From Candidatus Phoenicimicrobium oleiphilum (GTDB taxonomy: Bacteria > Atribacterota > Phoenicimicrobiia > Phoenicimicrobiales > Phoenicimicrobiaceae), in contig JBDIWJ010000030.1 of the NCBI GenBank assembly GCA_039638295.1, positions 1 through 23,265 of the forward strand: a DNA stretch of 23,265 nt, in the 5' to 3' direction. Positions within the stretch are counted from its first letter, which is position 1; each line of letters opens with the position of its first letter. Position numbers and translations under genes: made by a program. The notes beneath the pieces were generated by a model. It saw nothing but the letters and a program-made list of their open reading frames with translations, did not search any database and was not told where the DNA came from. Positions 3,228 to 23,121 of this stretch are shown here, in pieces.

Positions 3228-3228
3228 G

Positions 3229-4008: not shown

Positions 4009-4018
4009 GAGGAAAAAT

Positions 4019-5254: not shown

Positions 5255-5634
5255 TGCTTACTGTACAGAATTATGTAAATGGTTTAAAAGATAATAAGAT
5301 TTTGGGGACTAAATGCAAAAATTGTGGCAATATAATGATTCCCTTGAAACCTGTTTGTTCCAAATGTGGAAGTTTTGATGTTGAAGAGTTTGAAACAAAA
5401 GGCAAGGGAGTTATAAGGAGTTTTACTGTAATTTATGTGGCACCCGAAAAATTTAAAGATAAAGTTCCTTATGTAGTTGCTATTATTAACCTCGATGAAG
5501 GTGGGGCAATTATGGGTAGATTAACCGGAGTGGACCCAAATAAACCGGAAAATATTAAAGTTGGTACAAAAGTTAAATTTGAGGCTTTGGTAGAAGGTGA
5601 AGAAGTAGTTGTAGTATTTAGAGTTGATAACTAA
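5251..5634 (+). CDS. DUF35-family Zn-ribbon/OB-fold protein (thiolase accessory subunit)
   Basis: CKNCG-x10-CSKCGS zinc ribbon, then an OB fold (GKGVIRSFTVIY, PYVVAIINLDEG, IKVGTKV). ATGA overlap with the thiolase stop. Confidence 0.92.
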   Translation: MMLTVQNYVNGLKDNKILGTKCKNCGNIMIPLKPVCSKCGSFDVEEFETKGKGVIRSFTVIYVAPEKFKDKVPYVVAIINLDEGGAIMGRLTGVDPNKPENIKVGTKVKFEALVEGEEVVVVFRVDN

Positions 5635-5952
5635 ATACAAAATATATTTTAGGAAATTAGCAAGGTAAAATTGTTTTAAGTTACAAAAAAAGAGACTTTT
5701 TAAGATGTAAAATTGTGTTTTGGATTGAAAGTAAATCACGCAGAAGGGGGTGAGAATAAGAAATAAACAAAGTAATCTCTCAGTCTAAAAGTTAACGCAA
5801 GTTCTAATGAATAGCATAGAAAATTAAAAAAAATAAGGTAGGCTTTTAGAGAATTTTAAAATAGAGGAGTTGATACAAAAATAAAGTAGTTATAAGATAA
5901 AGATTTCAGAGTTTTTTAAAAAATACTATTATAAAACTTAGGAGGTAAAAAA

Positions 5953-6726: not shown

Positions 6727-6755
6727 ATAAAAAAATAAAAAAAGGAGTGATAATT

Positions 6756-8732
6756 ATGTCAGGTATTACTGTTTTTGGAATTTTCTTTGTAATATTTGGG
6801 GTTTTAATGACATTTATAGGATTTGTTACAAAAAAATGGATTGGGAGAAGTAGTGATTTTATAGTTGCAGGTCGTGAAGTAAATTTAATAGTGAATATCC
6901 TTGGGGTTGCTTCCATAGGTTATGCTGGAACTACTTTAGCATTGTCTCCAGCTTTTACTATTATGGGTGGTCTTACTAAAAGTGTCTTTATGTTAGGTGT
7001 TTGCTATGCGTTAGTAGGGATAATTTCTTATGGAATATTTGTAGCCCCAATTGCAAGAAGAAGTGGAGCTCATACACTTCCCGAATGGATGGAAATAAGA
7101 TATGATAACAGGGTTCGTACAATTATCGCTTTAACTGCAATTATGGCAATGATAGGGATTACTGCTAATAACGTTGTATCTATGGCCTACATACTTACTG
7201 GCTTTACTTCGTGGAATTTGCTTTTAACGATTACAATATGCTTTATTATTTTTCTGTCTTTTACGTACCTTGGAGGACTATGGGCAATTACTTTAACAGA
7301 TTTTGTTCAAGGTATTATTTGTGTTTTTGCAGTTCCTTTGTTAATCATAGTTTTGTTAATGAAATATGGAGGTTGGAATTTCGTTGCATCTAATTGGCCT
7401 GGTGGGAATCCTTTACTTTTTGGTATTAGCGGAACCACATTCCCCTGGTTTTCTTTAAGATACCCTAGTGTGTTTGTTGCTTTATTTTTATACGGGATGG
7501 CTCTAGTATGGGGTTCAAACCACTACTGGATAAGATCAAGTTCTGTAAGAAGCGATAGAATTGCAAGAAATTCTTATCTCTGGGCAGCATTAATTCTTTT
7601 TGTTGCAAATGGAATAATTTACCCTATACTTGGTGGTTATGTAGGTGCTGCTTATCCAAGTACATTTGCTCCATTGGGGAAAATTCCACCTGCTGCTAGT
7701 TTTGGAGTTTTTCTTAAGGCTATTTCTCCCGTTTCCGCGGCTTATTTACTTTTAACTACTGTAGCTGCATCTATTTCAACTGCAACCGCAACTCATATTG
7801 CTGGGAGTTCAATGATATTTCGTGATATTTATCAAAGGATATTTAGGCCAAATGCTAAACCAGAAGAAATGGTGACACCATCTCGGGTTATATCTCTAGT
7901 ATTTGGTATTGTTTGTCTTGGATTATGTTTTTTCCCAGGTGGGCCTGTATATCTTTTTGCTTTTGGTTGTGCATGGCTTGCTCCCTCTGCAATAATTGTT
8001 TTTTTAGGTATGTACTGGAAGAGAACTACTAATAAAGGGGCATTTATTGGCGGAATAATTGGAATTTTATTCTTAAGTGTTTGGACAATTCTTGATCTTA
8101 CTAAGCTTTATCCTATGACTGCAAAATTTGGCCATATGGTAATTCCTGGAGTAGTGATTACCTTTGTATTAACAGTTATTGTTAGTCTTTTTGATAAGTC
8201 TAAATATTTTGGAAAGCTGGAAGAAAAAGATAAAATAAAATTAATTGACAAAGATATTAAAGTTTTAGACTGTGTAAGAAAAGGTTATAATACAATGGCT
8301 GAAATTACAGATATATTGGATGTAGATTCTTCAATAAGTAATAAGGTTGTAGGAAAATTGGAAAATGGAGGGTATATAAAAAGATTAGCTAACTGTGGAG
8401 TTGGCTTTTATACCTTTGAATTAACAAGAAAAGGTAAAGAGGTATTTCCTCCTCCCTCTTCTACGAAAGAAGAAAAACTTACCGAAGATAAATTAGACAT
8501 GGTAAGTCTTAAAATATTAAGGTATATCGATACCAATCCAAATTTAGTAGCGAATAAATTAATAGAAATAACTGGTTTAAATCAAATGGCAAATTCTGTA
8601 CTGATTGCTTCATTAATTAGACGGGGGCTTCTTAAAGAAAGTGGAATGTGGAGGAGGATTGTAACAATAACTCAAAAAGGAAAAGAGATGCTTAGGAAAC
8701 ATAGAGAATTGTTGGAGGGAGGAGAAATATAA
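6756..8732 (+). CDS. Sodium:solute symporter (SSS/SLC5) with C-terminal tandem MarR-like winged-helix domains
   Basis: About 13 hydrophobic segments with SSS motifs DFIVAGR, TLPEWMEIRYD, YLGGLWAITLTDFVQG, AASISTA, RDIYQRIFRP, GMYWKRTTNKGA. The last ~165 aa are soluble and carry two wHTH-like repeats. ATG 6756 follows AAGGAG (6742-6747); the ORF-track GTG at 6747 overlaps that RBS. Confidence 0.88.
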   Translation: MSGITVFGIFFVIFGVLMTFIGFVTKKWIGRSSDFIVAGREVNLIVNILGVASIGYAGTTLALSPAFTIMGGLTKSVFMLGVCYALVGIISYGIFVAPIARRSGAHTLPEWMEIRYDNRVRTIIALTAIMAMIGITANNVVSMAYILTGFTSWNLLLTITICFIIFLSFTYLGGLWAITLTDFVQGIICVFAVPLLIIVLLMKYGGWNFVASNWPGGNPLLFGISGTTFPWFSLRYPSVFVALFLYGMALVWGSNHYWIRSSSVRSDRIARNSYLWAALILFVANGIIYPILGGYVGAAYPSTFAPLGKIPPAASFGVFLKAISPVSAAYLLLTTVAASISTATATHIAGSSMIFRDIYQRIFRPNAKPEEMVTPSRVISLVFGIVCLGLCFFPGGPVYLFAFGCAWLAPSAIIVFLGMYWKRTTNKGAFIGGIIGILFLSVWTILDLTKLYPMTAKFGHMVIPGVVITFVLTVIVSLFDKSKYFGKLEEKDKIKLIDKDIKVLDCVRKGYNTMAEITDILDVDSSISNKVVGKLENGGYIKRLANCGVGFYTFELTRKGKEVFPPPSSTKEEKLTEDKLDMVSLKILRYIDTNPNLVANKLIEITGLNQMANSVLIASLIRRGLLKESGMWRRIVTITQKGKEMLRKHRELLEGGEI

Positions 8733-8733
8733 A

Positions 8734-10002
8734 ATGGAAAAAGTTGAAATAGAAATTTTAGAAAATTGCAATTTAATTCCGCCGTATTTTACAAATGAAA
8801 AATGGGTTCCCCATCTTAATTTTTCCGAAGAAATTCGTTCCAAAATGGATATTCCAAAAAAAATTATTATTCACGATGTGACTCTTCGTGATGGTGAACA
8901 AACGGCGGGAATTGTTTTTACTGAGGATGAAAAAGTATTTATTGCACAGGAACTTGATAGAATTGGTATTCCATTAATTGAAGTGGGAACTCCTGCGGTT
9001 TCAGATGATGATAAGAGAGTTTTTAGAAGACTTTCTGAAATGAATCTTAGGGCTAAAACTCTTGCTCTTTCAAGGGTAATAGAGAAAGATGTGGAGTTAG
9101 CGATCGAAAATAAAGCTGACGGAATTTTTTTAGAAACGAGCATAAACCCCTATTTTCTTAAACATGTAGTGGGGTGGGATGTTAATGAATTAATTAAAAG
9201 AGCTATAAGGTGTACAAAACTTGCAAAAAAGGCAGGGTTGTTTGTCGAATTCTGTGGATGGGAAACCTTTAGGGTTAGCAATCTTGATGTTATTAAAAGA
9301 GTCTTCTCTGAGATTGTAGATAAGGTAGAAGTTGATCAAATAGGAATTTCCGATACATTTGGCCAAGCACATCCATTGGTTGTACAATTTCTAGTTAAAA
9401 AGATGAAAGAATGGGTTCCTGATGTTCCTTTATCTTTTCATATTCATAATGATTTTGGCTTAGCAACTGGTTCGGTTATGATGGCAGTCGTTTCAGGGGT
9501 TGATGCGGTAGAATGTGCTTTTAATGGCCTAGGGGAAAGAGCAGGGAATGTTGCCACTGAAGAAGTAATTGCTTCGTTAGAATTACTCATGAATATAGAT
9601 ACAGGAATAAATTTAAAGGAAATATACAGGGTTTCTAAACTGGTAGAAGAAATTTCTAAATTAAAAGTTGCGAGGACAAAGTCTATTATAGGGGATGGGA
9701 TTTTCGATTGTGAATCTGGAATAGTTGTAGATGCTAATATTAAGTTGGAGAAAAAATTAGGATTAAAGGATAGTTTTTTCCCATATTCTCCTTCAGTATT
9801 TGGTAGGAAATCTAAATATGTAGGCGGGAAAAAGAGCGGTAAAGCTTTTGTGAAAAATATCCTTATAGAAAAAGGACTTAGCGCTACAGATGAGCAGATA
9901 ACAAAAATTTTAGAAAAAGTTAAGAGCAGAGGCATAATCCTTAAAAATATTCTTTCTGATCAAGAGCTTGATATGATTGTGGAAGAAGAGATATCAAGCT
10001 AG
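8734..10002 (+). CDS. DRE-TIM metallo-enzyme, homocitrate/2-isopropylmalate synthase-like, without the LeuA regulatory domain
   Basis: DVTLRDGEQ, IEVGTP, ISDTFG, FHIHNDFGLA, NGLGERAGN, GKKSG. At 422 aa it lacks the C-terminal allosteric domain. Starts 1 nt after the symporter stop. Confidence 0.88.
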   Translation: MEKVEIEILENCNLIPPYFTNEKWVPHLNFSEEIRSKMDIPKKIIIHDVTLRDGEQTAGIVFTEDEKVFIAQELDRIGIPLIEVGTPAVSDDDKRVFRRLSEMNLRAKTLALSRVIEKDVELAIENKADGIFLETSINPYFLKHVVGWDVNELIKRAIRCTKLAKKAGLFVEFCGWETFRVSNLDVIKRVFSEIVDKVEVDQIGISDTFGQAHPLVVQFLVKKMKEWVPDVPLSFHIHNDFGLATGSVMMAVVSGVDAVECAFNGLGERAGNVATEEVIASLELLMNIDTGINLKEIYRVSKLVEEISKLKVARTKSIIGDGIFDCESGIVVDANIKLEKKLGLKDSFFPYSPSVFGRKSKYVGGKKSGKAFVKNILIEKGLSATDEQITKILEKVKSRGIILKNILSDQELDMIVEEEISS

Positions 10003-10509: not shown

Positions 10510-12156
10510 TTAAGATTTTAATAAATTTTTTAGCGTTTCTGCTGAGAAGAAATAGTACGGGAATTCTCTAAAAGTATAGACCTTAGATTGTTTCATCTTT
10601 TCATCCTCATCTTCTAACTTTTTGTTTAGCTTACCCTTCAAAGGTCTCATTTTTTCTCCAATAAAATTATTTATAGCTTTAATCTCTTCAGAAATTTCCC
10701 ATTTTTCGATAGGTGAAGAAATTTCCCTAATTTTTTTAATCAATCGGGCTTTTTTCGCTGCCATCTTTCTAATAAGATTTTTTTCTTCTTTGGTTAAAGA
10801 CAATTCATCAACATATCTTTCGGGATTAAATTCCAAATCCCTTATCTTCTTCTTTAGGTCAGATATTTTAGAATTAGGCGCGTCAGAGGAAGATTTAAGA
10901 TGAAGATATAAAGTGCAGGAAACAACCAAAAAGTGAGGAGGTTCCACCTTAAAAAATTCTCTGATAATTTCATCAGTTACCAGGTCATATTTTGCTCCTC
11001 CCAATCCGTGAATGAAAAGGTCAGAAATAAATAGTCGATTGTATAGAGTTAACAAAAGAGCTTTGGGTCTTATCTTTAAGTCCCGTTCTTTGAGGAGGGT
11101 TTTAAATGAAGATAGAGATTTTAAACTGTCTTCTTCTACAAGAAATATTTTCCCATAAGAATTATTATAAAGATAATTTCCTCCTCCCTTTCTTAAAATA
11201 AAAATTTTTCTCCTCTGGTCTTGCTCTCTCCAGATCCAGAAAGGGGCTTCGATAAGGTTTTCTTTAATGGTTAAATTAAGCGAGGGGTGTGCTTGATTTC
11301 TAATTTTAAATAACTTTCTGTATTCATCTAATTTATTATTATAAATTTCAGAAAAGGATTCGATGTTTTTAATAATATGCAAAAAGAAGGAGAGAAATTC
11401 ATCGCTATCGCAAATTTTCGAAAAAGGAATTTCCAGATAGGTTGGATGAATTTCTTGCTCGTAAAGACGGCGAGCTAAGCCAAGAAATTCTCCCAGATTG
11501 GCTTTTGGATAATTTTGGCTACATAGGTGGAAAGAATCTTCCAGACATTGAGAAAATATTTGAAAATTATTTAAAATTTCTTTATTTTCTGATTCTAATA
11601 GTTTAAGCCTATAGGTGGTATCCTGAATAAATTTGGTGGTAACTTCCTGAGGAGGGTAGGGATATTCTTCAAATGGGAGATGGGAAGCAAATTCCGAGGG
11701 GAAGAAATTTATTTTCTTTAATCTTAAATTTCTTTCTGAAGAAAGAGCAGGCAATAAAAAGTTAAGGTCTTTACAGATATCATTGTCCAGAATGATATTT
11801 AATCCTAAACATTTATCCGGCAAAGGAGATTTTAGAAGTTCATTTAAAAATATATTTTTAATCCATACTCCAGGATGAAAAAATACTGGTTGATGGCCAG
11901 TCTGGATAATATATTGGAAAGAGGAATTAATTTTTTCTTCAATATGGGGGTCAAATTTAGAACTAAACTTTAATGCCCTTTGAAGAACTTCTTTTCGGTT
12001 TTTTTCCCTAACTTCCTTGAAAGGCTGGTTAAGAAGTTTAAAGGAATACTGGCTAAAAATTTTCTTATTCTCTTCTAATAGGGAGGGTATCTCTTCTGTT
12101 GAATAAGAGAGTAAAATCTGCCTATTTTGCGGAACTTTAATATTTATTTTTTTCAT
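10510..12156 (-). CDS. Uncharacterised protein, distantly BshC-like (HUP/Rossmann-type ligase fold plus C-terminal coiled coil)
   Basis: 548-aa ORF with GAGGTG RBS. Motifs IIQTGHQPVFFHPGVWIKN, ILDND, EAPFWIW, IRPKALLLTLYNRL, LFIHGLGGAKYD, and a K/E-rich helical C-terminus. The layout parallels BshC (TGQQ motif, SEDHD, coiled coil); the function assignment is inference. Confidence 0.55.
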   Translation of the reverse strand: MKKINIKVPQNRQILLSYSTEEIPSLLEENKKIFSQYSFKLLNQPFKEVREKNRKEVLQRALKFSSKFDPHIEEKINSSFQYIIQTGHQPVFFHPGVWIKNIFLNELLKSPLPDKCLGLNIILDNDICKDLNFLLPALSSERNLRLKKINFFPSEFASHLPFEEYPYPPQEVTTKFIQDTTYRLKLLESENKEILNNFQIFSQCLEDSFHLCSQNYPKANLGEFLGLARRLYEQEIHPTYLEIPFSKICDSDEFLSFFLHIIKNIESFSEIYNNKLDEYRKLFKIRNQAHPSLNLTIKENLIEAPFWIWREQDQRRKIFILRKGGGNYLYNNSYGKIFLVEEDSLKSLSSFKTLLKERDLKIRPKALLLTLYNRLFISDLFIHGLGGAKYDLVTDEIIREFFKVEPPHFLVVSCTLYLHLKSSSDAPNSKISDLKKKIRDLEFNPERYVDELSLTKEEKNLIRKMAAKKARLIKKIREISSPIEKWEISEEIKAINNFIGEKMRPLKGKLNKKLEDEDEKMKQSKVYTFREFPYYFFSAETLKNLLKS

Positions 12157-12730: not shown

Positions 12731-12747
12731 TTTCCGTAATATGGAAA
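12731..12747. promoter_or_regulatory. Putative IclR-family operator overlapping the iclR start codon
   Basis: Imperfect palindrome TTTCCGTAATATGGAAA (TTTCC-N7-GGAAA). Its right part AATATGGAAAA recurs as AATATAGAAAA at 12708-12718, 30 bp upstream. Confidence 0.55.
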
Positions 12748-13508
12748 AACAAACGGGCAAAAAAGAGAGAATAAAATCTATAGATAAAGCCTTGGATTTA
12801 TTAGAATTTCTTTCAGTTAATGAGCAAGAAACAGGCATAACTGAAATAAGTAAAAAGTTGCATATGGGGCTAAGTACAGTGCATAGAATAATAACTACCT
12901 TAAAATCTCGCGGGTATGTTATTCAGAATCAACAAACAACGAAGTATAGATTAGGAATTAAGTTATTTGCGCTTGGTTGTGCAGTCCAAAGTACAAAACG
13001 TTTGGTCGAGATAACAAAACCCTATCTTAGACAGTTATCGCAAGTTACTAATGAGACAGCAAATCTAGCAATTTTGGAGGGTAAGGAAGTCATTTATCTT
13101 GATACAATTGAGAGCCCAGAAATTTTGAGGACGGAGATTATGGCAGGGACTAGAACTCCAGCCCATTGTACTGCTTTAGGGAAGGTCTTATTAGCTTTTA
13201 TTTCTGATGGGGAATTTGAAAGTTTATATAAAAATGACGAACCATTAACTTCCCTTACGTCTAATTCAATAGCTTCATTAGAGGAATTAAAAAAACATTT
13301 AAAAAAGGTTAAAGAACAGGGTTATGCGCTTGATAGAGAAGAATATAAAATTGGTATTAATTGTATAGGTGTCCCTATATTTGGTAGAAATGAAGCTATA
13401 GCTGCTATTAGTATCACTGGTCCAGCATCACGTTTTACTTTAGATAAGATGGAAAAAGTTAAGGATGAATTAATAACTATATCTAAAAAAATTTCTAATC
13501 AGTTTTAG
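12741..13508 (+). CDS. IclR-family transcriptional regulator
   Basis: IKSIDKALDLLEFL, HTH GITEISKKLHMGLSTVHRIITTL..RGYV, ETANLAIL, PAHCTALGKVLLA, GYALDREE..GINCIGVPI, AAISITGP. Confidence 0.96.
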   Translation: MEKQTGKKERIKSIDKALDLLEFLSVNEQETGITEISKKLHMGLSTVHRIITTLKSRGYVIQNQQTTKYRLGIKLFALGCAVQSTKRLVEITKPYLRQLSQVTNETANLAILEGKEVIYLDTIESPEILRTEIMAGTRTPAHCTALGKVLLAFISDGEFESLYKNDEPLTSLTSNSIASLEELKKHLKKVKEQGYALDREEYKIGINCIGVPIFGRNEAIAAISITGPASRFTLDKMEKVKDELITISKKISNQF

Positions 13509-13546
13509 ATATATAAAAATATATTATAGAAAGGAAGGATTAAAAG

Positions 13547-14401
13547 ATGAATAAAAAGAAGACCCGCTTAGATTTCATAGAAATGAAAAAGAAAGGAGAA
13601 CAAGTAGCTTGGGTAACTGCTTATGATTTTCCCACTGCCTCATTTGTTGAGCAAGCCGGTATGGATATGATCTTAGTCGGTGATTCATTAGGGATGGTAG
13701 TATTAGGTTATCAAGGTACAGTCCCAGTTACTATGGAAAACTGTATCTCTCATTGCCAGGCAGTTCGGAGAGGTGCACCGAATACTTTCTGTATCGGGGA
13801 TATGCCCTTTCTGTCCTATCAGATTTCCGACCAGGAAGCAGTGAGAAATGCAGGACGTTTTTTGAAAGAGGCGGATATGGATGCAGTAAAATTAGAAGGA
13901 GGAAGGAGAGTCTGTAGCAGAATAAAGGCTATAGCTGATGCCGGAATATTAGTTATGGGGCATATTGGTCTTACTCCCCAAAGTTCAGGTCAATTAGGTG
14001 GATTTAAAGCTCAAGGTAGAGATGCTGCTAGTGCACGAGAATTAATTAAGGATGCTTTGGCCATTCAAGAAGCTGGTGCTTATGCCCTCTTGTTAGAAGC
14101 AGTTCCACCAGAATTAACCGTATTTATTACTAAAAAATTGTCTATACCCGTCTACTCTATTGGAGCAGGGGGACCCTGTGATGGCCAGTTATTAATATGT
14201 GGCGATATGTTAGGCCTCTTCCAGGCCTTTACCCCTAAGTTTGTTAAGAAATATGCTAATATCGCCGAAATAGAAACCAATGCCTTTAAGGAATATATCA
14301 AAGATGTAAAGACCGGAGCCTTCCCTACAGATGATCACTGCTATCATATTTTAAAAGGCAAAGAAGAAGAGTTTTATGAGATGCTGAAAGAGTTTGAGTA
14401 A
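13547..14401 (+). CDS. panB: 3-methyl-2-oxobutanoate hydroxymethyltransferase (PanB) family enzyme
   Basis: VTAYDFPTA, LVGDSLGMV, GDMPFLSY, VKLEGG, MGHIGLTPQ, LLEAVP, SIGAG, DGQ, PKFVKKY. Confidence 0.93.
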   Translation: MNKKKTRLDFIEMKKKGEQVAWVTAYDFPTASFVEQAGMDMILVGDSLGMVVLGYQGTVPVTMENCISHCQAVRRGAPNTFCIGDMPFLSYQISDQEAVRNAGRFLKEADMDAVKLEGGRRVCSRIKAIADAGILVMGHIGLTPQSSGQLGGFKAQGRDAASARELIKDALAIQEAGAYALLLEAVPPELTVFITKKLSIPVYSIGAGGPCDGQLLICGDMLGLFQAFTPKFVKKYANIAEIETNAFKEYIKDVKTGAFPTDDHCYHILKGKEEEFYEMLKEFE

Positions 14402-14437
14402 ATCTTTAATATTTAAAGAAACAAAGGAGCAAATACA

Positions 14438-15388
14438 ATGAGTAAAACGATAAAAGAAATTAGAGAATTTATGGAGGGGATGGGGATTCCTGGAAGAGAT
14501 TTGGGTGAACTTCCTTCTTCAACAAAAACCTTTCCAGATGGCGCACAATGGAGAATAGAAATTTCGGGGGTCGAGCACCCATCAACTTTTGAAGCAATGA
14601 TTGACGAAGCAAAAAAAAGGAATGTACCCATTCATAGAGCCATAATAACAGTAGCAGGATCAACTTTAAGTGATTTTAGTGAATTGAAGGCTATGGCTCA
14701 AATGGGAAAAGATGAAAAGATAGAGGTTATAGCTACAATGGGTCCACGTAAAGCTTGGGACGTAGGGGCAAAGGCCGCAGCTTTTTCTGAAGGTGCTATG
14801 GTAGGGTTTAGGCTAAGAGGCTCTGATAACATTTCTTATTGGCTGGCAGATATGATGAGAAATATTGAAGCTGGGCTCAGAGGATTTCTGGTGCTTGACG
14901 AAGGAATACTTTCTATTGTGACTCGCATGCGTGAAAAGGGTTTTATACCTAAAGATGTAGTCTTTAAATGGTCTGCATTTGGTGGATACTGCAGTGCTGC
15001 CGGAGCTAAGGTTATTGAGAAGATGGGTGCTAATTCAATTAATCCTACATCAGATGTTTCGCTCCCAATTTTGGCAGGAATGCGAAAAGCGATTAATATA
15101 CCAATAGATATTTATATGTTTATTACAGATGCTGAAGGGGGGATGTTTAGGGTCTATGAAGCTCCGGAAATCGCCAGGGTTACCTCACCTTGTTACTTTA
15201 AAATTGAACCGGGAACTAGCCAGGCTGATATTTATAAACCCTGGGTGAAAGAGAGTTGGCATGCAGAATTTATGAGAGAGAAAGTCAAAGAAGCTGCCAT
15301 TTTTCAAGAGATTATGGAAAGACAAGCACCTAAATTAAAATTATCTAAGAAGGGTCCTTCTGATTTAATTCTCCCAGATCCTAAATAA
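14438..15388 (+). CDS. Uncharacterised TIM-barrel protein (often labelled peptidase U32-like)
   Basis: FPDGAQWRIEISGVE, VPIHR, GPRKAWD, GLRGFLVLDEG, FKWS, GANSINP..D, IPIDIY, EAPEIAR..SPCYFK. Family recognition is from memory, and the Fe-S Cys cluster of UbiU/TrhP-type U32 proteins is not evident. Confidence 0.55.
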   Translation: MSKTIKEIREFMEGMGIPGRDLGELPSSTKTFPDGAQWRIEISGVEHPSTFEAMIDEAKKRNVPIHRAIITVAGSTLSDFSELKAMAQMGKDEKIEVIATMGPRKAWDVGAKAAAFSEGAMVGFRLRGSDNISYWLADMMRNIEAGLRGFLVLDEGILSIVTRMREKGFIPKDVVFKWSAFGGYCSAAGAKVIEKMGANSINPTSDVSLPILAGMRKAINIPIDIYMFITDAEGGMFRVYEAPEIARVTSPCYFKIEPGTSQADIYKPWVKESWHAEFMREKVKEAAIFQEIMERQAPKLKLSKKGPSDLILPDPK

Positions 15389-15424
15389 ACTAATGGAACA
15401 AGCAATAAGAGGAGGAAAAAAATA

Positions 15425-16660
15425 ATGAAAAACGATCCATTTGAAACAGCTTTAAATACCTTGCGCGCTGCAGGGAAAATTGCAGGCTTGGAGCCCAATG
15501 CAATTAAAATTCTTAGTCAACCTAAACGTGTTTTTGAATTTATCATTCCTATGAAAATGGATAATGGTGAACTTAGGATATTTAATGCTTTTAGAGTTCA
15601 TTATAATGATGCCTTAGGAGAAATTAAGGACGGGACAAGATTTGTACCCAATTTAGATTTAAATACTGTAAAAGCTTTAGGATTTTGGATGACCATCAAA
15701 CACGCTGTTGCTGGTATTCCTGCTGGCGGAGGGAAAGGCGGTGTAAGAGTTGATCCTTCTGAGTTAAGTGAATGGGAATTAGAACGCCTTGTTCGTGCTT
15801 TTATTCGCAAGTTACCTATGAAGGGAGCGTGGGTTGATGTGCCAGGAGCAGATATTGGAACTAGTGCAAAAACACAGGCCTGGATGCTTGACGAGTATGA
15901 AGAAATAGTTGGATTTCATAGCCCTGCAGCAATTAATGACAAGCCAGCCGAAGTCAATGGTACTTTAGGTAGTATGGAGGCAACCGGAACTGGTGCATTT
16001 TTTGTTACTAAGGAAGTGGTGAAAGATATAGGATTAGCTAAAAGCCCATCAGTAGTTGTTCAGGGATTTGGAGATGTTGGACGTACTGTGGCGAGATTAC
16101 TTTATAATGATGGGTTTAAAGTCATAGCAGTAAGTGATATTAAAGGCGGGGTACATTCAGAGGAAGGAATTAATATAGAAGAACTTGCAAAATATGTTGA
16201 AGATACCGGATTTGTTGCAGGCTTTCCAGGAACAGTAGAAATAACTAATAAAGAGTTATTAGAAACGAAGTGTGATATTTTAATCCCTGCTGCGGTTCAA
16301 AGTGTTATTACTGATGAAAACGCAGATAAGATAAAAGCACAATTAATCATTGAAGGAGCAAATGGTCCAACTACCCCAGGAGCTGAAAAGATACTCGAAG
16401 AAAAAGGAATTACAATTATTCCTGATGTATTAGCTAACTGTGGTGGTGCTATTGTGTGTAGTTTTGAACGTACTCAAGGGTTAACTGATACTTACTGGGA
16501 TTTAGAAACTGTTAATAAAAAGCTTAAAGAAAGAATTTTAAAAGCCTATAAGGAAACCGTTACAACTGCAAGAGAAAAGAACATCTCCCTTAGAAATGCT
16601 GCCTGGGTTAATGCCTTGACCAAGATAAGCAAGGCAATGAAAGCCAGGGGATGGATATAA
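15425..16660 (+). CDS. Glu/Leu/Phe/Val dehydrogenase family protein; substrate probably not glutamate
   Basis: FRVHYN, MTIKHA, GGGKGG, DVPGADIGT, EATG, VVQGFGDVG, DILIPAA, IEGANGPTT, IIPDVLAN. Several substrate-pocket residues differ from the GDH consensus. Confidence 0.9.
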   Translation: MKNDPFETALNTLRAAGKIAGLEPNAIKILSQPKRVFEFIIPMKMDNGELRIFNAFRVHYNDALGEIKDGTRFVPNLDLNTVKALGFWMTIKHAVAGIPAGGGKGGVRVDPSELSEWELERLVRAFIRKLPMKGAWVDVPGADIGTSAKTQAWMLDEYEEIVGFHSPAAINDKPAEVNGTLGSMEATGTGAFFVTKEVVKDIGLAKSPSVVVQGFGDVGRTVARLLYNDGFKVIAVSDIKGGVHSEEGINIEELAKYVEDTGFVAGFPGTVEITNKELLETKCDILIPAAVQSVITDENADKIKAQLIIEGANGPTTPGAEKILEEKGITIIPDVLANCGGAIVCSFERTQGLTDTYWDLETVNKKLKERILKAYKETVTTAREKNISLRNAAWVNALTKISKAMKARGWI

Positions 16661-16763
16661 GAATTTGTAAAATGAATTCTTTTTTCAGATAAATTTTATT
16701 AGAAAGATATCTCGGCAGATACCTAAAAGATATTAGTAAGATAGATTATAGAGGGAATTTGTA

Positions 16764-17291
16764 GTGAAAATATCAAACTTTTTGGCAAAGACAAATATGG
16801 TGTTAGAGAAAATAGAGGAAGTTATCCTCTGTATAGGGGTTAGCGTGCTGGCTATAATTTTAATTGTCAATGTAGTAGCCAGAAAAGCAGGAACCTCGAT
16901 CTATTTTATCGATGAAATAGCTATGTTTTTAGTGATCTGGATAACCTTTATTGGCGTAAGTTATGCCTCGAGGAAGGCAAGGCATATCCGTATGGGGGCA
17001 ATATTTGACTTATCTTCGGTGAGGGTGCAAAAAATCATGATATTTGTAATTTCTACAATCAGTGCTATAGTCATGTTCTACCTGACCTATATTTCTGTTA
17101 ATTACGTATATACTACTTATCGTTGGCAACAAGTGGCCCCAGCTCTAAGAATGCCCTATTGGATTGGTATCGTAGTCGTTCCGGTGGGTTTCTTCCTGGC
17201 CGGAATACATTATGTTCGGACCATTGTGAAGAACATCCAGGTAAAAGAGGAGGTCTGGCTCTCTCCTGAACAAAAGAGCGAATATGAGTGA
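16764..17291 (+). CDS. TRAP transporter small permease (DctQ/TeaB-like)
   Basis: Four TM segments; NVVAR, DEIAMFLVIWITFIGVSYASRKARHIRM, PALRMPYW; GTG start after GAGGG. Confidence 0.92.
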   Translation: MKISNFLAKTNMVLEKIEEVILCIGVSVLAIILIVNVVARKAGTSIYFIDEIAMFLVIWITFIGVSYASRKARHIRMGAIFDLSSVRVQKIMIFVISTISAIVMFYLTYISVNYVYTTYRWQQVAPALRMPYWIGIVVVPVGFFLAGIHYVRTIVKNIQVKEEVWLSPEQKSEYE

Positions 17292-17316
17292 GGAAGGAGG
17301 TTAGAGAGGAGGAATT

Positions 17317-18600
17317 ATGTTACAATTGATGGGAGTGGTAGCGTTCACCTTGCTTTTTCTTGGTTTCCCCTTTATGGTGGTACTCCTTGCTACTTTTCTG
17401 TTAGTTAGTTTTTTCTTTTTTCCTGATCTTAATCTAAATATACTAATACAGCAAATATTGAGTGGGATTAAGCCACTTTCTCTGGTTTGTGTGCCTATGT
17501 TTATACTGGCGGCTAATATTATTACTTCCGGACAGGCTGCCAAGAGAATGATAAATATGGTAAAGGCTTTCCTGGGACATCTATTTGGGGGCCTGCCTAT
17601 AGTTACTAATGTTGCCTGTACTTTATTTGGGGCTGTATCTGGCTCCACGCAGGCAACTGTAGCTGCTATAGGGGGGACAATGCGCCCCATGCTCCTCGAG
17701 GCTGGTTATTCCAGCCCTTTTACCCTTGGTTTAATTATTAATTCCAGCGACATTGCTTTTCTTATTCCTCCCAGCATAGGTTTTATTGTATATGGAGTAG
17801 CAACGCAAACTTCTGTTGGAAAATTATTTCTTGCCGGTATTCTTCCCGGATTACTTGTTTGTGCTTTATTCTCAATCTTTTCCTATTTTTACTCCAAATT
17901 TTATAATATTGGGCTTTATCCCAAGGCTAGTTGGAAGGAAAGGAAGCAGGTTACCAAGGAAGGCATCTTGATAATTGGTTTTCCTATATTGATCCTTGGA
18001 GGGATCTATGGGGGGATATTCAGTCCTACGGAAGCAGCTGCTTCTTCTGTACTATATGCTTTAGTCTTAGAGGGACTGGTTTATAAAACATTAACATTTA
18101 AAAAACTCATAGATATTGCCCTGTCTACGGCAGTGGTCACTGCCGTGGTTTTCATATTGGTGGGAGCGGGGCAAGCCATATCCTGGCTTTTAAGTTATTC
18201 TGGAATATACAAACTAATCCTGCCACCTCTTTTTGGGGATGAACCTTCTGTCCTAAAGGTTATTATCATAATTAATATTGCTTATTTCATTGCTTGTATG
18301 TTTGTTGATCCCATTGTCGCTATTTATGTTCTAACTCCACTTTTTGCGCCCTATGTAGCTCAAGCAGGGATTGACAAAGTTTTTCTGGGAGTTTTAGTAA
18401 CAATGCAAGCAGCAATAGGTTCGGCTACTCCACCTTGTGGGTGTGATATTTTCACTGCCATGGTGATCTTTAAAAGACCTTATTTAGAAGTGATAAGGAT
18501 GACCTGGCCTTTTGTGCTTATTTTACTAGTAGCAGTGGCCATAGTAATCACTTTTCCTGAACTGGCTCTTTTTATACCAAGGAGCGCTTTAGGGGGCTAA
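17317..18600 (+). CDS. TRAP transporter large permease (DctM/TeaC-like)
   Basis: LVCVPMFILAANI, GHLFGGL, LFGAVSGSTQATVAAIG, LIPPSIGFIVYG, LFLAGILPG, GGIFSPTEAA, IGSATPP. Confidence 0.95.
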   Translation: MLQLMGVVAFTLLFLGFPFMVVLLATFLLVSFFFFPDLNLNILIQQILSGIKPLSLVCVPMFILAANIITSGQAAKRMINMVKAFLGHLFGGLPIVTNVACTLFGAVSGSTQATVAAIGGTMRPMLLEAGYSSPFTLGLIINSSDIAFLIPPSIGFIVYGVATQTSVGKLFLAGILPGLLVCALFSIFSYFYSKFYNIGLYPKASWKERKQVTKEGILIIGFPILILGGIYGGIFSPTEAAASSVLYALVLEGLVYKTLTFKKLIDIALSTAVVTAVVFILVGAGQAISWLLSYSGIYKLILPPLFGDEPSVLKVIIIINIAYFIACMFVDPIVAIYVLTPLFAPYVAQAGIDKVFLGVLVTMQAAIGSATPPCGCDIFTAMVIFKRPYLEVIRMTWPFVLILLVAVAIVITFPELALFIPRSALGG

Positions 18601-18691
18601 AAGTAAAGGAGATGATGCTTATGTAATGAAAATAAATGAGTAGATATATTTCTTGGATATTAATAAAATTAAACAAAAAGGAGGGATAAAT

Positions 18692-19744
18692 ATGAGAAAT
18701 TTCAGGTTGATTCTAATCTTAGGTTTAGTAATAGTGCTAATAGCTTTTGTCTTCCCCGTATTTGCTCAAGAAAAAACTGAGGTCTACAAATGGAAAATGA
18801 TCTCTGAAGAGGTGACGGGGGATCCCATGACGGTCTTTGCCGAGCGATTTGCTGATCTAGTAGAAAAAAAATCAAATGGGAGAATAGAAATCGAAGTCTT
18901 TCCCTATGGTACTCTTGGAGGAGAGAGGGATATAGTTGAGCTTGTTCAGATGGGAGAGATAGAATTGGGCAGTGTAGACTATGGATGGGTTGGAGGCTTT
19001 GTGCCTCAAGCTCAGGTCTTGGCTTTACAATATCTCTGGCCAAAAGAGAATACCGCTGAAGTTATGCATGAAGTTTGCCAGAATGGTCGGGCTATCCAAC
19101 TACTGGAAGAAGGTTTTAGAAATAGAGGTTTTCAGTTATTAGGTGTATGGAGTTCAGGTTGGATGAGGGTCACCTCTAATGTTCCCATCCATTCTCCGAA
19201 AGATGTTAAAGGACTTAAACACAGGGTAATGGCAAATCCTATCCTGGTAAAGGCTTACAATACCTATGGTTTTAATGCACAAAGCTTAGACTATGGCGAG
19301 ATCTATGGAGCTCTACAGACTGGATTGCTAGATTCACAGGTTCAGCCGATGTATGCCCACTTAAGTATGGGTTTCTATGAAGTTCAAGACTATATTACCA
19401 ACTTGTGGAATGAAGCATTTATGGTCACCCCAGTAGTTAATCGTGAACTTTTTGATAGCATACCTGAAGATCTACAGCAGATACTTATTGACTCCTGTGC
19501 GGAACTTATAGTACCAATGACTAACTGGTCTTTCCGAAACAACGAACTAATAGGGATGAAGATTAGGGAGGCCAAACCCACAATTACAATTTATGAGTTA
19601 AATGACGAAGAGATAGTGCCATTCAAAGAGCTGGCCTGGCAAGAAGGTGGCCCCGTCGATACTTACTTGAAAATTGGTGGTGAGGGCGCTAAGGAGATAC
19701 TTGATGCATTATTAAATGATATTAAGACTGCTCAAAGACAATAA
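18692..19744 (+). CDS. TRAP substrate-binding protein (DctP; TeaA/UehA ectoine-binding-like)
   Basis: Signal peptide MRNFRLILILGLVIVLIAFVFPVFA|QE. WKMISEE..G, FADLVEKKSNG, VFPYGTLG, DIVELVQMG, GLKHRVM, YGEIYGALQTG, FYEVQDY. ATG 18692 follows AGGAGG. Confidence 0.9.
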   Translation: MRNFRLILILGLVIVLIAFVFPVFAQEKTEVYKWKMISEEVTGDPMTVFAERFADLVEKKSNGRIEIEVFPYGTLGGERDIVELVQMGEIELGSVDYGWVGGFVPQAQVLALQYLWPKENTAEVMHEVCQNGRAIQLLEEGFRNRGFQLLGVWSSGWMRVTSNVPIHSPKDVKGLKHRVMANPILVKAYNTYGFNAQSLDYGEIYGALQTGLLDSQVQPMYAHLSMGFYEVQDYITNLWNEAFMVTPVVNRELFDSIPEDLQQILIDSCAELIVPMTNWSFRNNELIGMKIREAKPTITIYELNDEEIVPFKELAWQEGGPVDTYLKIGGEGAKEILDALLNDIKTAQRQ

Positions 19745-19768
19745 TATTTTTGGTTTACTGAATTTTAG

Positions 19769-19799
19769 CCTATAGCACAGGTAAAACCTGTGCTATAGG
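19769..19799. other. Perfect RNA stem-loop after dctP (mRNA-stabilising or partial termination element)
   Basis: CCTATAGCACAGGT-AAA-ACCTGTGCTATAGG: a 14-bp perfect stem with no U-tract on either strand. Confidence 0.7.
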
Positions 19800-19952
19800 T
19801 GGAAAGTTCCAGAACAAACAATCAATTAGAATAAAATTAACTAAGTTTACAGTCATTACCATACTACGATTGTCTGCACTGTCTTTTAATGAAAGCCAAA
19901 TGCAGCTCGCATAAGGTTTTTATTTATTTTTTAAGCAAGGAGAAATAATTAG

Positions 19953-21122
19953 ATGTTATATTTTTATATTAATGAATATAAAGATAGGATTAAAAAAACA
20001 AAAAAAAGAATGGAAGCAGAAGGTATTGATGTTTTATTTATTTCTCAACCAGCAAATATGAACTACCTTACTGGTTATGATGGATGGAGTTTTTACGTTC
20101 ATCAGGGTGTAATTGTATCATTAGACAAAGAAGAGCCAATTTGGGTCGGTAGAGCTATGGATGCTAACGGAGCTAAAATAACCACGTTTCTTAAAGATGA
20201 AGATATAAGAGGTTACCCTGATGATTATGTTCAATCAAAAACAAAACACCCGATGCAATTTGTTGCAGATATAATCAAGAAAAAAGGATGGGATAATAAG
20301 ACGATTGCCGTTGAAATGGATCAATTTTATTTTACCCATCGTTGTTATTTAGAATTAGAAAAAGCTCTGCCTAAAGCAAAATTTAAAGATGGTAACCTTT
20401 TAGTTAACATGGTAAGGATGATAAAATCTGAAAAAGAAATTGAGTTTATGAAAAGAGCAGGTAAAATTGCTGTAAAAGCAATGCAAGCGGGTATAGATTC
20501 TGTTAATGTCGGAGTAAGGGAATGTGATGCAGCAGCAAATATTTCTTATGCCCAGATAAAGGGTACTGAAGAATATGGTGGAGATTATCCGGCTATAGTG
20601 CCTTTGATGATGGCTGGCGAAGGAACAAGTACCCCTCATTTGACCTGGTCTGATAGAAAGTTTGAGAATAATGAAGCTGTTCTTTTAGAATTGTCTGGAG
20701 TGTATAAACATTATCATGCACCTATTGCAAGGACTATTTATCTTGGTACCCCGCCTAAAATAATGAGAGAGACTGCAGATGTTGTAACAAATGGATTGGC
20801 TAAAACACTGGAATTTATTAAACCAGGAGTTACCTGTGAAGAAGTAGAAGCAAAGTGGAGAGATGCTATTTCCCACTCAACTGTTGTTAAAGAATCACGT
20901 TTGGGGTATTCAATCGGCTTGAACTATCCGCCTGACTGGGGCGAACAAACCATAAGCCTGAGGCCTGGCGATAAAACTATTTTACAGCCAAATATGACCT
21001 TACACCTTATACCAGGCATTTGGTATAAAGAAGTTGGATTTGAAGTAGACGCATCGATAAGGATTACTAAAAAGGGATATGAATCGTTATACGATTTTCC
21101 CATGGAACTTTTTATTAAATAA
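19953..21122 (+). CDS. doeA: Ectoine hydrolase (DoeA/EutD; M24 pita-bread fold, creatinase-like)
   Basis: Subfamily-typical strings PANMNYLTGYDGWSFYVHQ, WVGRAMDANGA, GYPDDYVQS..HPM, GGDYPAIVP, PHLTW, GYSIGLNYPPDWGE. The canonical Xaa-Pro peptidase metal ligands are largely replaced (ELSG, HAP, GYS, HLIPG). Confidence 0.85.
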   Translation: MLYFYINEYKDRIKKTKKRMEAEGIDVLFISQPANMNYLTGYDGWSFYVHQGVIVSLDKEEPIWVGRAMDANGAKITTFLKDEDIRGYPDDYVQSKTKHPMQFVADIIKKKGWDNKTIAVEMDQFYFTHRCYLELEKALPKAKFKDGNLLVNMVRMIKSEKEIEFMKRAGKIAVKAMQAGIDSVNVGVRECDAAANISYAQIKGTEEYGGDYPAIVPLMMAGEGTSTPHLTWSDRKFENNEAVLLELSGVYKHYHAPIARTIYLGTPPKIMRETADVVTNGLAKTLEFIKPGVTCEEVEAKWRDAISHSTVVKESRLGYSIGLNYPPDWGEQTISLRPGDKTILQPNMTLHLIPGIWYKEVGFEVDASIRITKKGYESLYDFPMELFIK

Positions 21123-21160
21123 TATTCTATTTCGAAAAATTAAAGGAGGGGTAGAGGTAC

Positions 21161-21895
21161 ATGTTGTATAAAGCCAAAAAGGGACAAGCAAGTTATGGTG
21201 AGGCTATAGGAATTCTTTTATTGGATACATCCTTTGCCCCTTATGTTCCAGGTGACGTGGCTAATGCTACTTCTTATTCCTTTCCGGTAAGATTTAAAGT
21301 AGTAAATGGTCTTACTGTCGAAAGGATCTTTAATAAAGAGATTAAATTTTTAGATCGAGTAATTGAAGCTGGTAAGGAATTAATAGAACATGGAGTAAGA
21401 GCAATTACAGGCGATTGTGGATTCATGGCTTTATTCCAAAGAGAAGTGGCCAAACAATTAGAAGTTCCCGTATTTTTATCCAGTCTTCTTCAGTTACCTT
21501 TCCTGACAAGAATAATTGGTGAGGGACAAAAAGTTGGAATAATTACGGCAAATTCAAAGATACTTGATGATACTTTATTAAGAGAAGTGGGCATTAAAGA
21601 TATGAATTCTGTCTATATCAAAGGAGTGGAAGGTAAAGAATATTTTAGAAAAGCAATTATTGAAGAAGTTGGCTGGCTTGATTTCGAGAAGGTGGAAAAA
21701 GAAGTGGTGTCTGCAGCCAAGGAGATGACCAGAGAAGATCCTAAAATAAAAGTTATTTTATTAGAATGCAGCTGTCTGCCTCCCTATGGAGCGGCAGTTC
21801 AAGAGGCAATAAATCTTCCTGTTTTTGATTATATCACTATGATAAACTATGTCTATTCAGCCGTTGTTAAGAAGAATTTCAAAGGTTTTATGTAG
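21161..21895 (+). CDS. Aspartate/glutamate/hydantoin racemase-family protein
   Basis: GEAIGILLLD, PGDVANA.SYSFPV, two catalytic-type Cys motifs ITGDCGF and LLECSCLPPY, PVFLSSL, LPVFD. Confidence 0.85.
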   Translation: MLYKAKKGQASYGEAIGILLLDTSFAPYVPGDVANATSYSFPVRFKVVNGLTVERIFNKEIKFLDRVIEAGKELIEHGVRAITGDCGFMALFQREVAKQLEVPVFLSSLLQLPFLTRIIGEGQKVGIITANSKILDDTLLREVGIKDMNSVYIKGVEGKEYFRKAIIEEVGWLDFEKVEKEVVSAAKEMTREDPKIKVILLECSCLPPYGAAVQEAINLPVFDYITMINYVYSAVVKKNFKGFM

Positions 21896-21942
21896 CATTT
21901 AAAACGTAATTTTTTATTACGAAAGGATAATATAAAACCACT

Positions 21943-23121
21943 ATGAATATAAAAAAGAAAATAACAAGTCTAAAAGATGAATTAATTGAATTAAGAAGAG
22001 ATTTTCATAAGCATCCCGAGCTGGGATTTAAAGAATATAGGACTGCAGAAATTGTAGCAAATTATCTTGAAAAATGCGGATTGAAGGTAAAAAGAGGTAT
22101 TGCAAGAACAGGTGTTGTTGCTCTGCTTGAGGGAAATGCTCCGGGTCCTACTTTACTTTTACGTGCCGATATGGACGCCTTACCTATTCAAGAAGAAAAT
22201 GAGGTACCGTATAAATCGGTAAATAATGGAGTAATGCACGCTTGTGGTCATGATGCTCACACAGCTATGCTCTTAGTGGCTGCGAAAATTCTTTCTAATT
22301 ATAAGGAGAAAATAAAAGGGAATATTAAATTTGTTTTTCAGCCGAATGAAGAAGTTGGTGGGGCAAAAGTAATGGTAGAAGAAGGAGTTCTTGAAAATCC
22401 TCTGGTAGATGCGGCAATGGCTCTACATTTATGGACCCCGATAGAAAGTGGGAAGATTGGAGTTACAGCTGGTCCTATAACCGCAACTCTTGATGTCTTT
22501 AACCTTAAGATTAAAGGGAAAGGTGGGCATACAGGTTATCCGGAAAACGCAGTGGATCCAATTATTGCCGCTGCAAATATTATTCAGACTATCCAAACTA
22601 TACAGACAAGAGAAATAAGTGCGTTAAAGCCTACTATTATTATGTTTACTAAAATAAAAAGTGGAGTAAAATCTAATATTATACCTGATACAGTTAATTT
22701 AGGAGGGACAATAAGGTATTTTTATAAAGAGGGAGTGAAGGACGAAGAGAAAATAAATAAAAGATTTGAAAGAATAGTAGAAGCTATTTGTAGAGCTTAT
22801 AGAACGAAATATAAATTAAAATTTTATAATGAGAATCAGTCAGTCATTAATAATCTGAATATGACAAAATTAGTGATAACTATAGGTGAAGAATTACTAG
22901 GCAATGGTGACAAAATTATACCGTATGTATCCACTGCCGGTGAAGATTTTTCTGAGTTTGCCAATAAGGTTCCGAGTGTCTTCTATTTTGTTGGGGCTGG
23001 CAATATAGAAAAAGAATCCCATTACCCTCATCATAATCCGCGTTTTAATATCGATGAGGATGTAATGTTAATTGGAGTTGAAATGCATGTTCGCAGCGCA
23101 TTAGAATTTTTTAATAAATAG
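21943..23121 (+). CDS. M20D-family amidohydrolase (N-acyl-amino acid deacylase-like)
   Basis: RRDFHKHPELGFKE, LRADMDALP, MHACGHDAH, FQPNEE, GKGGH, GEDFS, HHNPRF. Confidence 0.93.
   Translation: MNIKKKITSLKDELIELRRDFHKHPELGFKEYRTAEIVANYLEKCGLKVKRGIARTGVVALLEGNAPGPTLLLRADMDALPIQEENEVPYKSVNNGVMHACGHDAHTAMLLVAAKILSNYKEKIKGNIKFVFQPNEEVGGAKVMVEEGVLENPLVDAAMALHLWTPIESGKIGVTAGPITATLDVFNLKIKGKGGHTGYPENAVDPIIAAANIIQTIQTIQTREISALKPTIIMFTKIKSGVKSNIIPDTVNLGGTIRYFYKEGVKDEEKINKRFERIVEAICRAYRTKYKLKFYNENQSVINNLNMTKLVITIGEELLGNGDKIIPYVSTAGEDFSEFANKVPSVFYFVGAGNIEKESHYPHHNPRFNIDEDVMLIGVEMHVRSALEFFNK

Follow-up and report, generated by a model that had tools for sequence, protein, structure and literature searches.

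A glutamate dehydrogenase-fold protein with an altered side-chain pocket, predicted to be an L-2,4-diaminobutanoate 2-dehydrogenase, in an ectoine-type gene cluster of Atribacterota

The stretch of DNA analysed here, referred to as the window, comprises 23,265 nucleotides of Candidatus Phoenicimicrobium oleiphilum (contig JBDIWJ010000030.1) and contains a gene for a dehydrogenase of the glutamate dehydrogenase (GDH) fold. The gene lies within a run of ten plus-strand genes, extending from 12741 to 23121 and separated by gaps of 25-208 bases, in the order IclR, PanB-like, U32-like, dehydrogenase, TRAP QMP, DoeA-like, racemase-like and M20 (Table 1). The TRAP solute-binding protein matched its three structures at E values of 5e-45 to 3e-42; 2VPN is TeaA with ectoine and 3FXB is UehA (PMC5924519). 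The M24 protein matched solved DoeA at E 2e-109, compared with 2e-32 for the next family, and the M20 enzyme scored 279 bits on the DoeB2 model NF038260 (cut-off 550). A Pfam scan of the window did not find a class III aminotransferase (Atf/DoeD) or Ssd/DoeC. The original prediction, made from the sequence of the window, had been that the side-chain pocket of the dehydrogenase no longer binds a gamma-carboxylate and might accept an amine, such as the 4-amino group of L-2,4-diaminobutanoate (DABA).

Table 1. Genes of the ectoine-type cluster in the window, with the matches on which each assignment is based (CoA, coenzyme A; NAD, nicotinamide adenine dinucleotide; pLDDT, predicted local distance difference test)
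Feature	Position	Strand	Remarks
IclR-family regulator, likely cluster control	12741..13508	+	Pfam IclR_C, HTH_IclR; IclR gene in 22/56 family loci
PanB-like hydroxymethyltransferase, distinct clade	13547..14401	+	TIGR00222 325.6 bits, cut-off 207.55
U32-like TIM-barrel protein	14438..15388	+	no Pfam or NCBIfam match; model pLDDT 87
GDH-fold amino-acid dehydrogenase, altered side-chain pocket	15425..16660	+	411 aa; predicted DABA 2-dehydrogenase, likely NAD-linked
TRAP small permease DctQ	16764..17291	+	PF04290
TRAP large permease DctM	17317..18600	+	PF06808; TIGR00786 above cut-off
TRAP solute-binding protein, TeaA/UehA type, likely ectoine-binding	18653..19744	+	top three PDB matches 3gyy, 2vpn, 3fxb
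DoeA/EutD-like ectoine hydrolase, M24 fold	19953..21122	+	TIGR02993 475.9 bits, cut-off 613
Asp/Glu/hydantoin racemase-like protein (PRK07475)	21161..21895	+	domain scans; in 20/56 loci
M20 amidohydrolase, likely N-acetyl-DABA deacetylase	21943..23121	+	TIGR01891 above cut-off; in 32/56 loci

Both ELFV domains were found in the 411-residue dehydrogenase, ELFV_dehydrog_N (PF02812) at 145 bits against a cut-off of 25 and ELFV_dehydrog (PF00208) at 233 bits against a cut-off of 23. Its closest solved relatives were archaeal GDHs (E 3e-111); identity to archaeal and plant GDHs was 43-45%, and the predicted model aligned with them at template-modelling (TM) scores of 0.90-0.93. The leucine, phenylalanine, valine and tryptophan dehydrogenases were far more distant (E 1e-12 to 1e-15, against 1e-111 for GDH), and in a scan of curated models the tryptophan dehydrogenase model gave 64 bits (cut-off 600) and the Ord model gave no match. 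The trait of the Leu, Phe, Val and Trp dehydrogenases, an apolar residue at the position of K89 in Clostridium symbiosum GDH, was absent, the window enzyme having K68 there. The protein fell short of the cut-off for each of the five GDH models that it matched, the best being NF040817 at 424 bits against 750. Its predicted chemistry is GDH-like, yet it does not class as a GDH. By the logic of the family, the fold together with intact K92, K104 and D143 makes it a predicted active 2-amino-acid dehydrogenase. The genome encodes two more GDHs, both with canonical motifs, which rules out a role as the sole housekeeping GDH. Proteins 87-92% identical to it carry the label Candidatus Atribacteria.

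Related proteins were collected from two sources. A contig scan of 15 of 64 parts, from which the best 80 loci were kept, gave 45 loci with altered motifs and 35 canonical loci that served as controls. A search of 401 Bacillota genomes gave 13 family members, for 11 of which wider DNA was obtained (of those left out, one was already present as locus L038 and one lay on a short contig). The resulting 56 loci encode 57 proteins, or 58 with the window protein. In a quick tree built from the 58 family rows plus 15 of the 40 canonical ones, the family separated from canonical GDHs with a Shimodaira-Hasegawa-like approximate likelihood ratio (SH-aLRT) support of 100. Members came from Atribacterota, Bacillota, Thermodesulfobacteriota, Synergistota, Chloroflexota, Cloacimonadota, Myxococcota and Marinobacter, and the family is found mostly in anaerobic bacteria. 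Its distribution was patchy: it was present in five of 61 relatives, the window genome included. A phylum-wide search of Desulfobacterota gave a match in 1 of 301 genomes. Sequencing error or drift within one lineage was ruled out as the origin of the altered motifs, since the changes are common to 58 sequences from several phyla.

In C. symbiosum GDH the gamma-carboxylate is bound by K89 and S380, and the pocket is shaped by A163, V377 and G90 (bioRxiv 10.1101/2024.12.26.630402). Transfer of this numbering by motif and by the 2yfh alignment gave the equivalences K89=K68, S380=C345, A163=G141, V377=A342 and G90=D69, together with T193=N171, G194=D172 and R205=S183. We take T193, G194 and R205 to have pocket roles in GDH as well. 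Residues were counted in one alignment of the 58 family rows and 40 canonical GDH rows, two of the family rows ending before positions 342, 345 and 349. The altered motifs were real, with K68, D69, G70, K92, K104, G141-A142-D143, N171, D172, K173, S183, A342, C345 and S346 at the positions given for them in the original prediction, and seven pocket positions changed jointly across the 58-member clade, as the claim of concerted alteration requires. Position 69 was Asp in 44 and Asn in 14 family rows (Gly in all 40 canonical rows), position 141 Gly in all 58 (Ala in 40), position 171 Asn in 57 and Asp in one (Thr in 40), and position 172 Asp in 58 (Gly in 40). Position 183 was Ser in 28, Gly in 28 and Thr in two (Arg in 39 and Lys in one canonical row), position 342 Ala in 46, Val in eight, Ile in one and Cys in one (Val in 40), and position 345 Cys in all 56 covered rows (Ser in 40). 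A further change, unnoticed at first, lay at position 349, which was Arg in 56 of 56 covered family rows and Trp, Met or Gln in canonical rows.

Retention of the lysines for alpha-carboxylate binding and catalysis was borne out: K92 and K104 were invariant in 58 of 58 family and 40 of 40 canonical rows, as were D143, K173 and G216, so that the catalytic Asp and the GxGxxG motif are also kept. Loss of the conserved Arg and Ser held as well, for the R205 equivalent is Ser or Gly (Thr in two rows) and that of S380 is Cys in every covered row. Two claims held in part. Of the two new aspartates, D172 is the sole invariant new acid, but D69 alternates with Asn; and while the S380 and R205 equivalents of the gamma-carboxylate site are gone, its main ligand, the K89 equivalent K68, is kept, position 68 being basic in 57 of 58 rows (Lys in 32, Arg in 25, Gly in one). 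Judged from the sequences, the pocket would therefore have lost S380 and R205, become roomier and gained one invariant acid, D172, while retaining K68; for this reason the pocket alone would say ‘not glutamate’ without deciding between an amine and an acetamide. Values of pLDDT in the AlphaFold model lie below 50 at residues 133-146 and 163-183 and at 52 for the block 61-70, stretches that cover the G141, D172 and D69 regions. At position 238 an acidic residue followed by Ile or Val was present in 45 of 58 family rows, compared with Ser in 31 of 40 canonical rows. An acidic residue here, which we take to mark a preference for NAD, followed by Ile or Val, suggests NAD as the cofactor. Two family copies were present in one Acetomicrobium cluster (L034, 1563-2801 and 8970-10220), the first of which has Gly instead of K68 and a long branch.

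The identity of the substrate is indicated by gene context. Across the 56 family loci a U32-like gene was present in 36, a DoeA-like gene in 32, M20 in 32, DctM in 28 and a PanB-like gene in 27, while none of the tested genes was found in any of the 35 control GDH loci. At least one ectoine-type gene (DoeA-, M20-, TRAP- or EutE-like) was present in 39 of the 56; the remaining 17 include short contigs and seven Marinobacter-type loci. A class III aminotransferase was found in just two loci and was absent from 54. An EutB-like gene was present in 14 loci, none of which had an EutC-like gene; threonine-dehydratase chemistry of the EutB-like enzyme on hydroxy-DABA would yield 4-amino-2-oxobutanoate, the same keto acid as expected from DABA. 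Two loci (L106, 10842-17482; L026, 4652-8164) combine U32-like and dehydrogenase genes with amidohydrolase and deacylase genes in place of those for DoeA and TRAP, perhaps for another DABA-containing substrate. In L166 (5013-9851) an amino-acid permease and three proteins resembling, by eye, 5-oxoprolinase subunits lie between the dehydrogenase and DoeA, and could open the lactam of DABA.

An indication of the reaction came from a gene replacement. In locus L126 the order IclR-PanB-U32-X-DoeA-racemase-M20-TRAP-EutB is preserved, X being a class I pyridoxal phosphate-dependent aminotransferase rather than the dehydrogenase. The U32-like gene was found in 40 of 301 Desulfobacteria genomes; of the best 30 loci, 11 had the dehydrogenase in the slot after it and 16 a class I aminotransferase; no locus had both, and the remaining three had another gene or the contig end there. 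Class I aminotransferases work on alpha-amino groups, so the slot is expected to produce a 2-oxo acid. L127 (G004:C12, 7205-10399) has no U32-like gene; it encodes IclR, a class I aminotransferase and a PanB-like protein of the same clade (86% identical), and may represent a homoserine route. L164 (9069-13851) encodes PanB-like and U32-like proteins followed by a 937-residue protein, resembling by eye a flavin adenine dinucleotide/Fe-S 2-hydroxyacid oxidase, where the dehydrogenase would be expected.

Three mutually exclusive downstream modules accompany the dehydrogenase, in 36, 4 and 2 of the 56 loci, with 14 loci having none inside the DNA retrieved, and all three fit a single product, 4-amino-2-oxobutanoate. 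The first, that of the window, consists of the U32-like and PanB-like genes. The second, in L038, L044, L107 and L115, lacks both and comprises a VorABG-type 2-oxoacid:ferredoxin oxidoreductase and a hotdog-fold beta-aminoacyl-CoA ammonia-lyase; the L038 lyase matched the solved beta-alanyl-CoA ammonia-lyase at E 1e-83, and L107 and L115 also encode an acyl-CoA dehydrogenase whose best model, acryloyl-CoA reductase, was under cut-off. Beta-alanyl-CoA arises by oxidative decarboxylation only from 4-amino-2-oxobutanoate. The dehydrogenases of L038 (66% identical to the window protein), L044 and L107 fall in the same starred set of 16 tree rows as the window protein. The third module, in L023 and L029, pairs a D-2-hydroxyacid dehydrogenase with a class III aminotransferase; L029 has in addition a succinate-semialdehyde dehydrogenase (above the TIGR01780 cut-off) and a tartrate/malate-dehydrogenase-like gene (under cut-off), and this module would run via 4-amino-2-hydroxybutanoate and malate. 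L115 (G390:C12, 1057-16825) has an ornithine fermentation operon with the dehydrogenase, a Kal-like lyase, VorABG, acyl-CoA dehydrogenase and electron-transfer flavoprotein directly after it, and has no ectoine genes.

The PanB-like gene occurred each time with a U32-like gene. Like E. coli PanB (1M3U), the window protein scores above the PanB cut-off and retains the metal and catalytic motifs; unlike it, the PanB-like proteins form a separate clade (support 100/99) with the changes I212L, V214I, H216G/S and G201S/G (E. coli numbering), so that V214 gives way to a bulkier residue and H216 is lost. The window genome, which is 91% complete, gave no panC match; among five other genomes tested, panC was present in four, and four had three or more PanB matches. 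Ketopantoate without its two methyl groups is 4-hydroxy-2-oxobutanoate, and the PanB-like enzyme, as opposed to biosynthetic PanB, is predicted to be catabolic on an unmethylated substrate, yielding pyruvate and methylene-tetrahydrofolate (methylene-THF) from 4-hydroxy-2-oxobutanoate or its 4-amino counterpart. Formation of 4-hydroxy-2-oxobutanoate from pyruvate and formaldehyde is partly supported by Pseudomonas putida PanB (bioRxiv 10.1101/2025.02.17.638773). FolD is present in the window genome. Locus L128 (G003:C34, 5161-10538), whose genome likewise gave no match for panC, carries three PanB paralogues, a PanE-like reductase, an IlvD-like dehydratase and a TRAP transporter, a gene set that suggests catabolic PanBs for hydroxy acids.

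The U32-like protein had no match in Pfam or NCBIfam, PF01136 included, and no sequence match in the PDB. PF01136 was present in 17-23% of members among its ESM Atlas neighbours, and its model, a TIM barrel, gave Z scores of 14-15 tied among CutC, class II aldolases and the U32 protein Mk0906 (14.6). The gene is never found alongside either of the other two modules; in nine of its 36 loci, five of these with long flanks, it occurred without PanB at a 55% threshold. Because it alternates with the ammonia-lyase and with the omega-aminotransferase, the U32-like protein may strip the 4-amino group from the 2-oxo acid, which is the weakest step of the pathway. Distant homologues were found on plasmids in unrelated contexts. 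Distant homologues in L121 (4906-8936) and L123 (5503-8882) lie beside a galactonate-dehydratase-like gene, a hint at 2-keto-3-deoxy acids as substrates of the wider family.

We consider it probable that the dehydrogenase is an NAD-linked DABA 2-dehydrogenase and the hub of an undescribed anaerobic ectoine pathway, a reading that agrees with the substrate guessed in the original prediction and to which the aminotransferase swap and the co-travelling modules lend support. By homology, the TRAP system would import ectoine, the DoeA-like hydrolase would open its ring to give N-alpha-acetyl-DABA, and the M20 enzyme would free acetate and DABA. The pocket and the gene swaps point to the dehydrogenase deaminating DABA at C2, to yield 4-amino-2-oxobutanoate and ammonia. 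The U32-like barrel might then take off the 4-amino group, probably giving 4-hydroxy-2-oxobutanoate, and the PanB-like enzyme would cut the C3-C4 bond to give pyruvate and methylene-THF. A wider proposal, whose chances we put somewhat short of even, is that at least six phyla of anaerobes ferment ectoine and hydroxyectoine via 4-amino-2-oxobutanoate as a new hub made by a GDH-fold DABA dehydrogenase, the commonest version using a new TIM-barrel deaminating enzyme and a reversed PanB to yield pyruvate, ammonia and methylene-THF, with three new activities in one operon.

Several observations weigh against assignment to DABA. A basic residue at the gamma-carboxylate position is odd for an ammonium side chain, changes of the A163G and V377A type widen the pocket and would equally suit an acetylated substrate, Asn replaces D69 in 14 of the 58 rows, and the pocket loops lie in the low-pLDDT part of the model. 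The aminotransferase swap is one switch on the U32-like tree and counts as a single event, and the class III aminotransferase module is a single clade of two loci. The lyase and oxidoreductase genes could belong to a beta-alanine metabolism of their own; those of L044 are about 7-9 kb downstream. The lyases of L107 and L115 score above the 3-aminobutyryl-CoA lyase cut-off, and L115 adjoins the ornithine operon, its genome giving no match to DoeA. Seven Marinobacter-type loci (L033, L036, L040-L043 and L045) stand alone without conserved neighbours, and the U32-like gene and a near-cut-off DoeA were absent from four of four Marinobacter-type genomes tested. In the window itself, the DoeA-like and M20 proteins both score under curated cut-offs; its genome gave no match for formyl-THF synthetase and encodes two class III aminotransferases unlinked to the cluster.

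The main rival holds that the substrate is N-gamma-acetyl-DABA, the second ring-opening product, which has a free alpha-amino group, and that deacetylation follows oxidation. The enlarged pocket (G141, A342, S/G183), the basic residue 68 and D/N69 could hold an acetamide. Halomonas elongata DoeA yields the gamma and alpha isomers at 1:2 (PMC7192451), and N-gamma-acetyl-DABA (gamma-ADABA) is abundant in Ruegeria pomeroyi on ectoine (PMC8739950). Several clusters, moreover, have two M20 genes, and L038 encodes an EctA-like acetyltransferase (73.6 bits, cut-off 120.6). However, the hydrolases studied form mainly or exclusively the alpha isomer, so that under this rival 54 of the 56 loci would offer DABA no exit; a full EctA-like gene occurs in only one locus; and L115 has the dehydrogenase and ammonia-lyase but lacks an M20 gene within 20 kb and a DoeA anywhere in its genome. 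We regard this substrate as unlikely. L115 also bears on a broader 2,4-diamino-acid dehydrogenase acting on DABA, 3-hydroxy-DABA or 2,4-diaminopentanoate, since it follows a complete ornithine operon (Ord, OrtAB and OraE all above cut-off) and encodes a lyase that clears the Kal cut-off, making a five-carbon diamino acid possible as substrate there. The ornithine mutase product is, however, presumably D at C2 and the family L-specific, and L115 is a deep branch. In a variant of this idea the enzyme is a reductive substitute for EutC in the hydroxyectoine branch, as the presence of EutB without EutC in 14 of 14 loci and the tendency of GDH-type equilibria to favour amination would allow; against this, EutB is missing from the window, and in most loci DABA would be left without an onward route. 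Together these broader roles appear improbable.

L-Homoserine as substrate would give 4-hydroxy-2-oxobutanoate, a direct ketopantoate analogue, to the PanB-like enzyme, and a PanB of the same clade stands beside the aminotransferase alone in L127; Bacillus ectoine clusters are also reported to carry homoserine dehydrogenase (PMC13188858). This reading is very improbable: the class III aminotransferase required on the way from DABA towards homoserine is missing from 54 of the 56 loci, and close homologues are paired with an ammonia-lyase, which requires an amino group. We give least credence of all to an ordinary or non-catalytic GDH that recycles ammonia or 2-oxoglutarate for the cluster. Identity, TM scores and the retained K68 are what it would predict, but the equivalents of S380, A163, V377, G90, T193 and R205 have all changed, the protein scores below the cut-offs of the five GDH models, its genome has two canonical GDHs, and it is swapped for an aminotransferase, not paired with one.

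The assignment to a DABA 2-dehydrogenase places the protein beside several known systems. With the hexameric small GDHs (Thermococcus litoralis 1BVU, Thermococcus profundus 1EUZ, C. symbiosum 1BGV) it shares the fold (TM 0.90), about 44% identity, the alpha-carboxylate Lys, the catalytic Lys and Asp, the Rossmann motif and the K89-equivalent lysine; it differs in the changes of G90 to D/N, A163 to G, T193 to N, G194 to D, R205 to S/G, V377 mostly to A and S380 to C, in the invariant R349, in its separate clade and in its ectoine-type clusters. The Leu, Phe, Val and Trp dehydrogenases are likewise ELFV-superfamily enzymes with an altered side-chain pocket, but the present family keeps a basic residue at the K89 position and adds acids. 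Ord (2,4-diaminopentanoate) and Kdd (3,5-diaminohexanoate) dehydrogenases, from clostridial ornithine and lysine fermentation, also carry out NAD(P)-linked deamination of diamino acids in anaerobes, followed by CoA-linked cleavage or an ammonia-lyase, but belong to other protein families and act at C4 or C3, not at the alpha carbon.

Saline sediments are rich in the osmolyte ectoine, whose only described breakdown, to our knowledge, is by transamination of DABA to aspartate. With the uehABC-eutABCDE-ssd-atf cluster of R. pomeroyi and doeABCD of H. elongata and methanotrophs, the family clusters share a TeaA/UehA-type TRAP transporter, a DoeA/EutD-like hydrolase and a deacetylase-like enzyme, together with an EutB-like gene in 14 of the 56 loci. 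In the known route Atf/DoeD removes the 4-amino group of DABA and Ssd then oxidizes the product to aspartate (PMC13188858). The family clusters, in contrast, lack Atf/DoeD and Ssd (with the exceptions of L023 and L029) and have a C2-deaminating enzyme with U32-like and PanB-like or other keto-acid modules. Unusual Thermodesulfobacteriota clusters lacking eutE and ssd have been described, but a GDH-like gene or panB is neither mentioned nor given a function in the text of that report (PMC13188858). That a DABA 2-dehydrogenase had not been described was also our finding: neither the enzyme, nor 4-amino-2-oxobutanoate, nor such a pathway appeared in openly searchable papers, most subscription journals being outside this coverage, and the single phrase match refers to the dat/ddc diaminopropane route (PMC10648994). 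The cluster predicts a different lower ectoine pathway for anaerobes, uncultured Atribacterota included, one testable in the cultured Anaerotignum neopropionicum DSM 3847 and Anoxynatronum buryatiense. The wider proposal, if true, would tie an osmolyte straight to one-carbon metabolism in Atribacterota, in sulfate reducers and in haloalkaliphilic clostridia. The predicted pathway would also give the GDH fold, itself much studied, a new natural substrate. It would supply functions for a U32-like family that is still an orphan and for a PanB clade that is mis-annotated, and biocatalysis would gain a natural amino-acid dehydrogenase with a large pocket.

A promoter and terminator scan was at chance level (34 and 10 sites, against 33.7 and 7.9 expected), and the GC profile gave no clear island. 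Elsewhere in the window, a 548-residue open reading frame on the minus strand (10510-12156) had no Pfam or NCBIfam match. A second catabolic gene run, at 2253-10002, encodes two CoA-transferase subunits, a thiolase with a ChsH2-type OB-fold partner, a cyclase-family protein, a DRE-TIM synthase under all isopropylmalate synthase and homocitrate cut-offs, and a sodium:solute symporter fused to winged-helix domains. This SSS-family symporter (6747-8732) has a C-terminal MarR-like winged-helix extension, with Pfam matches at 503-563.

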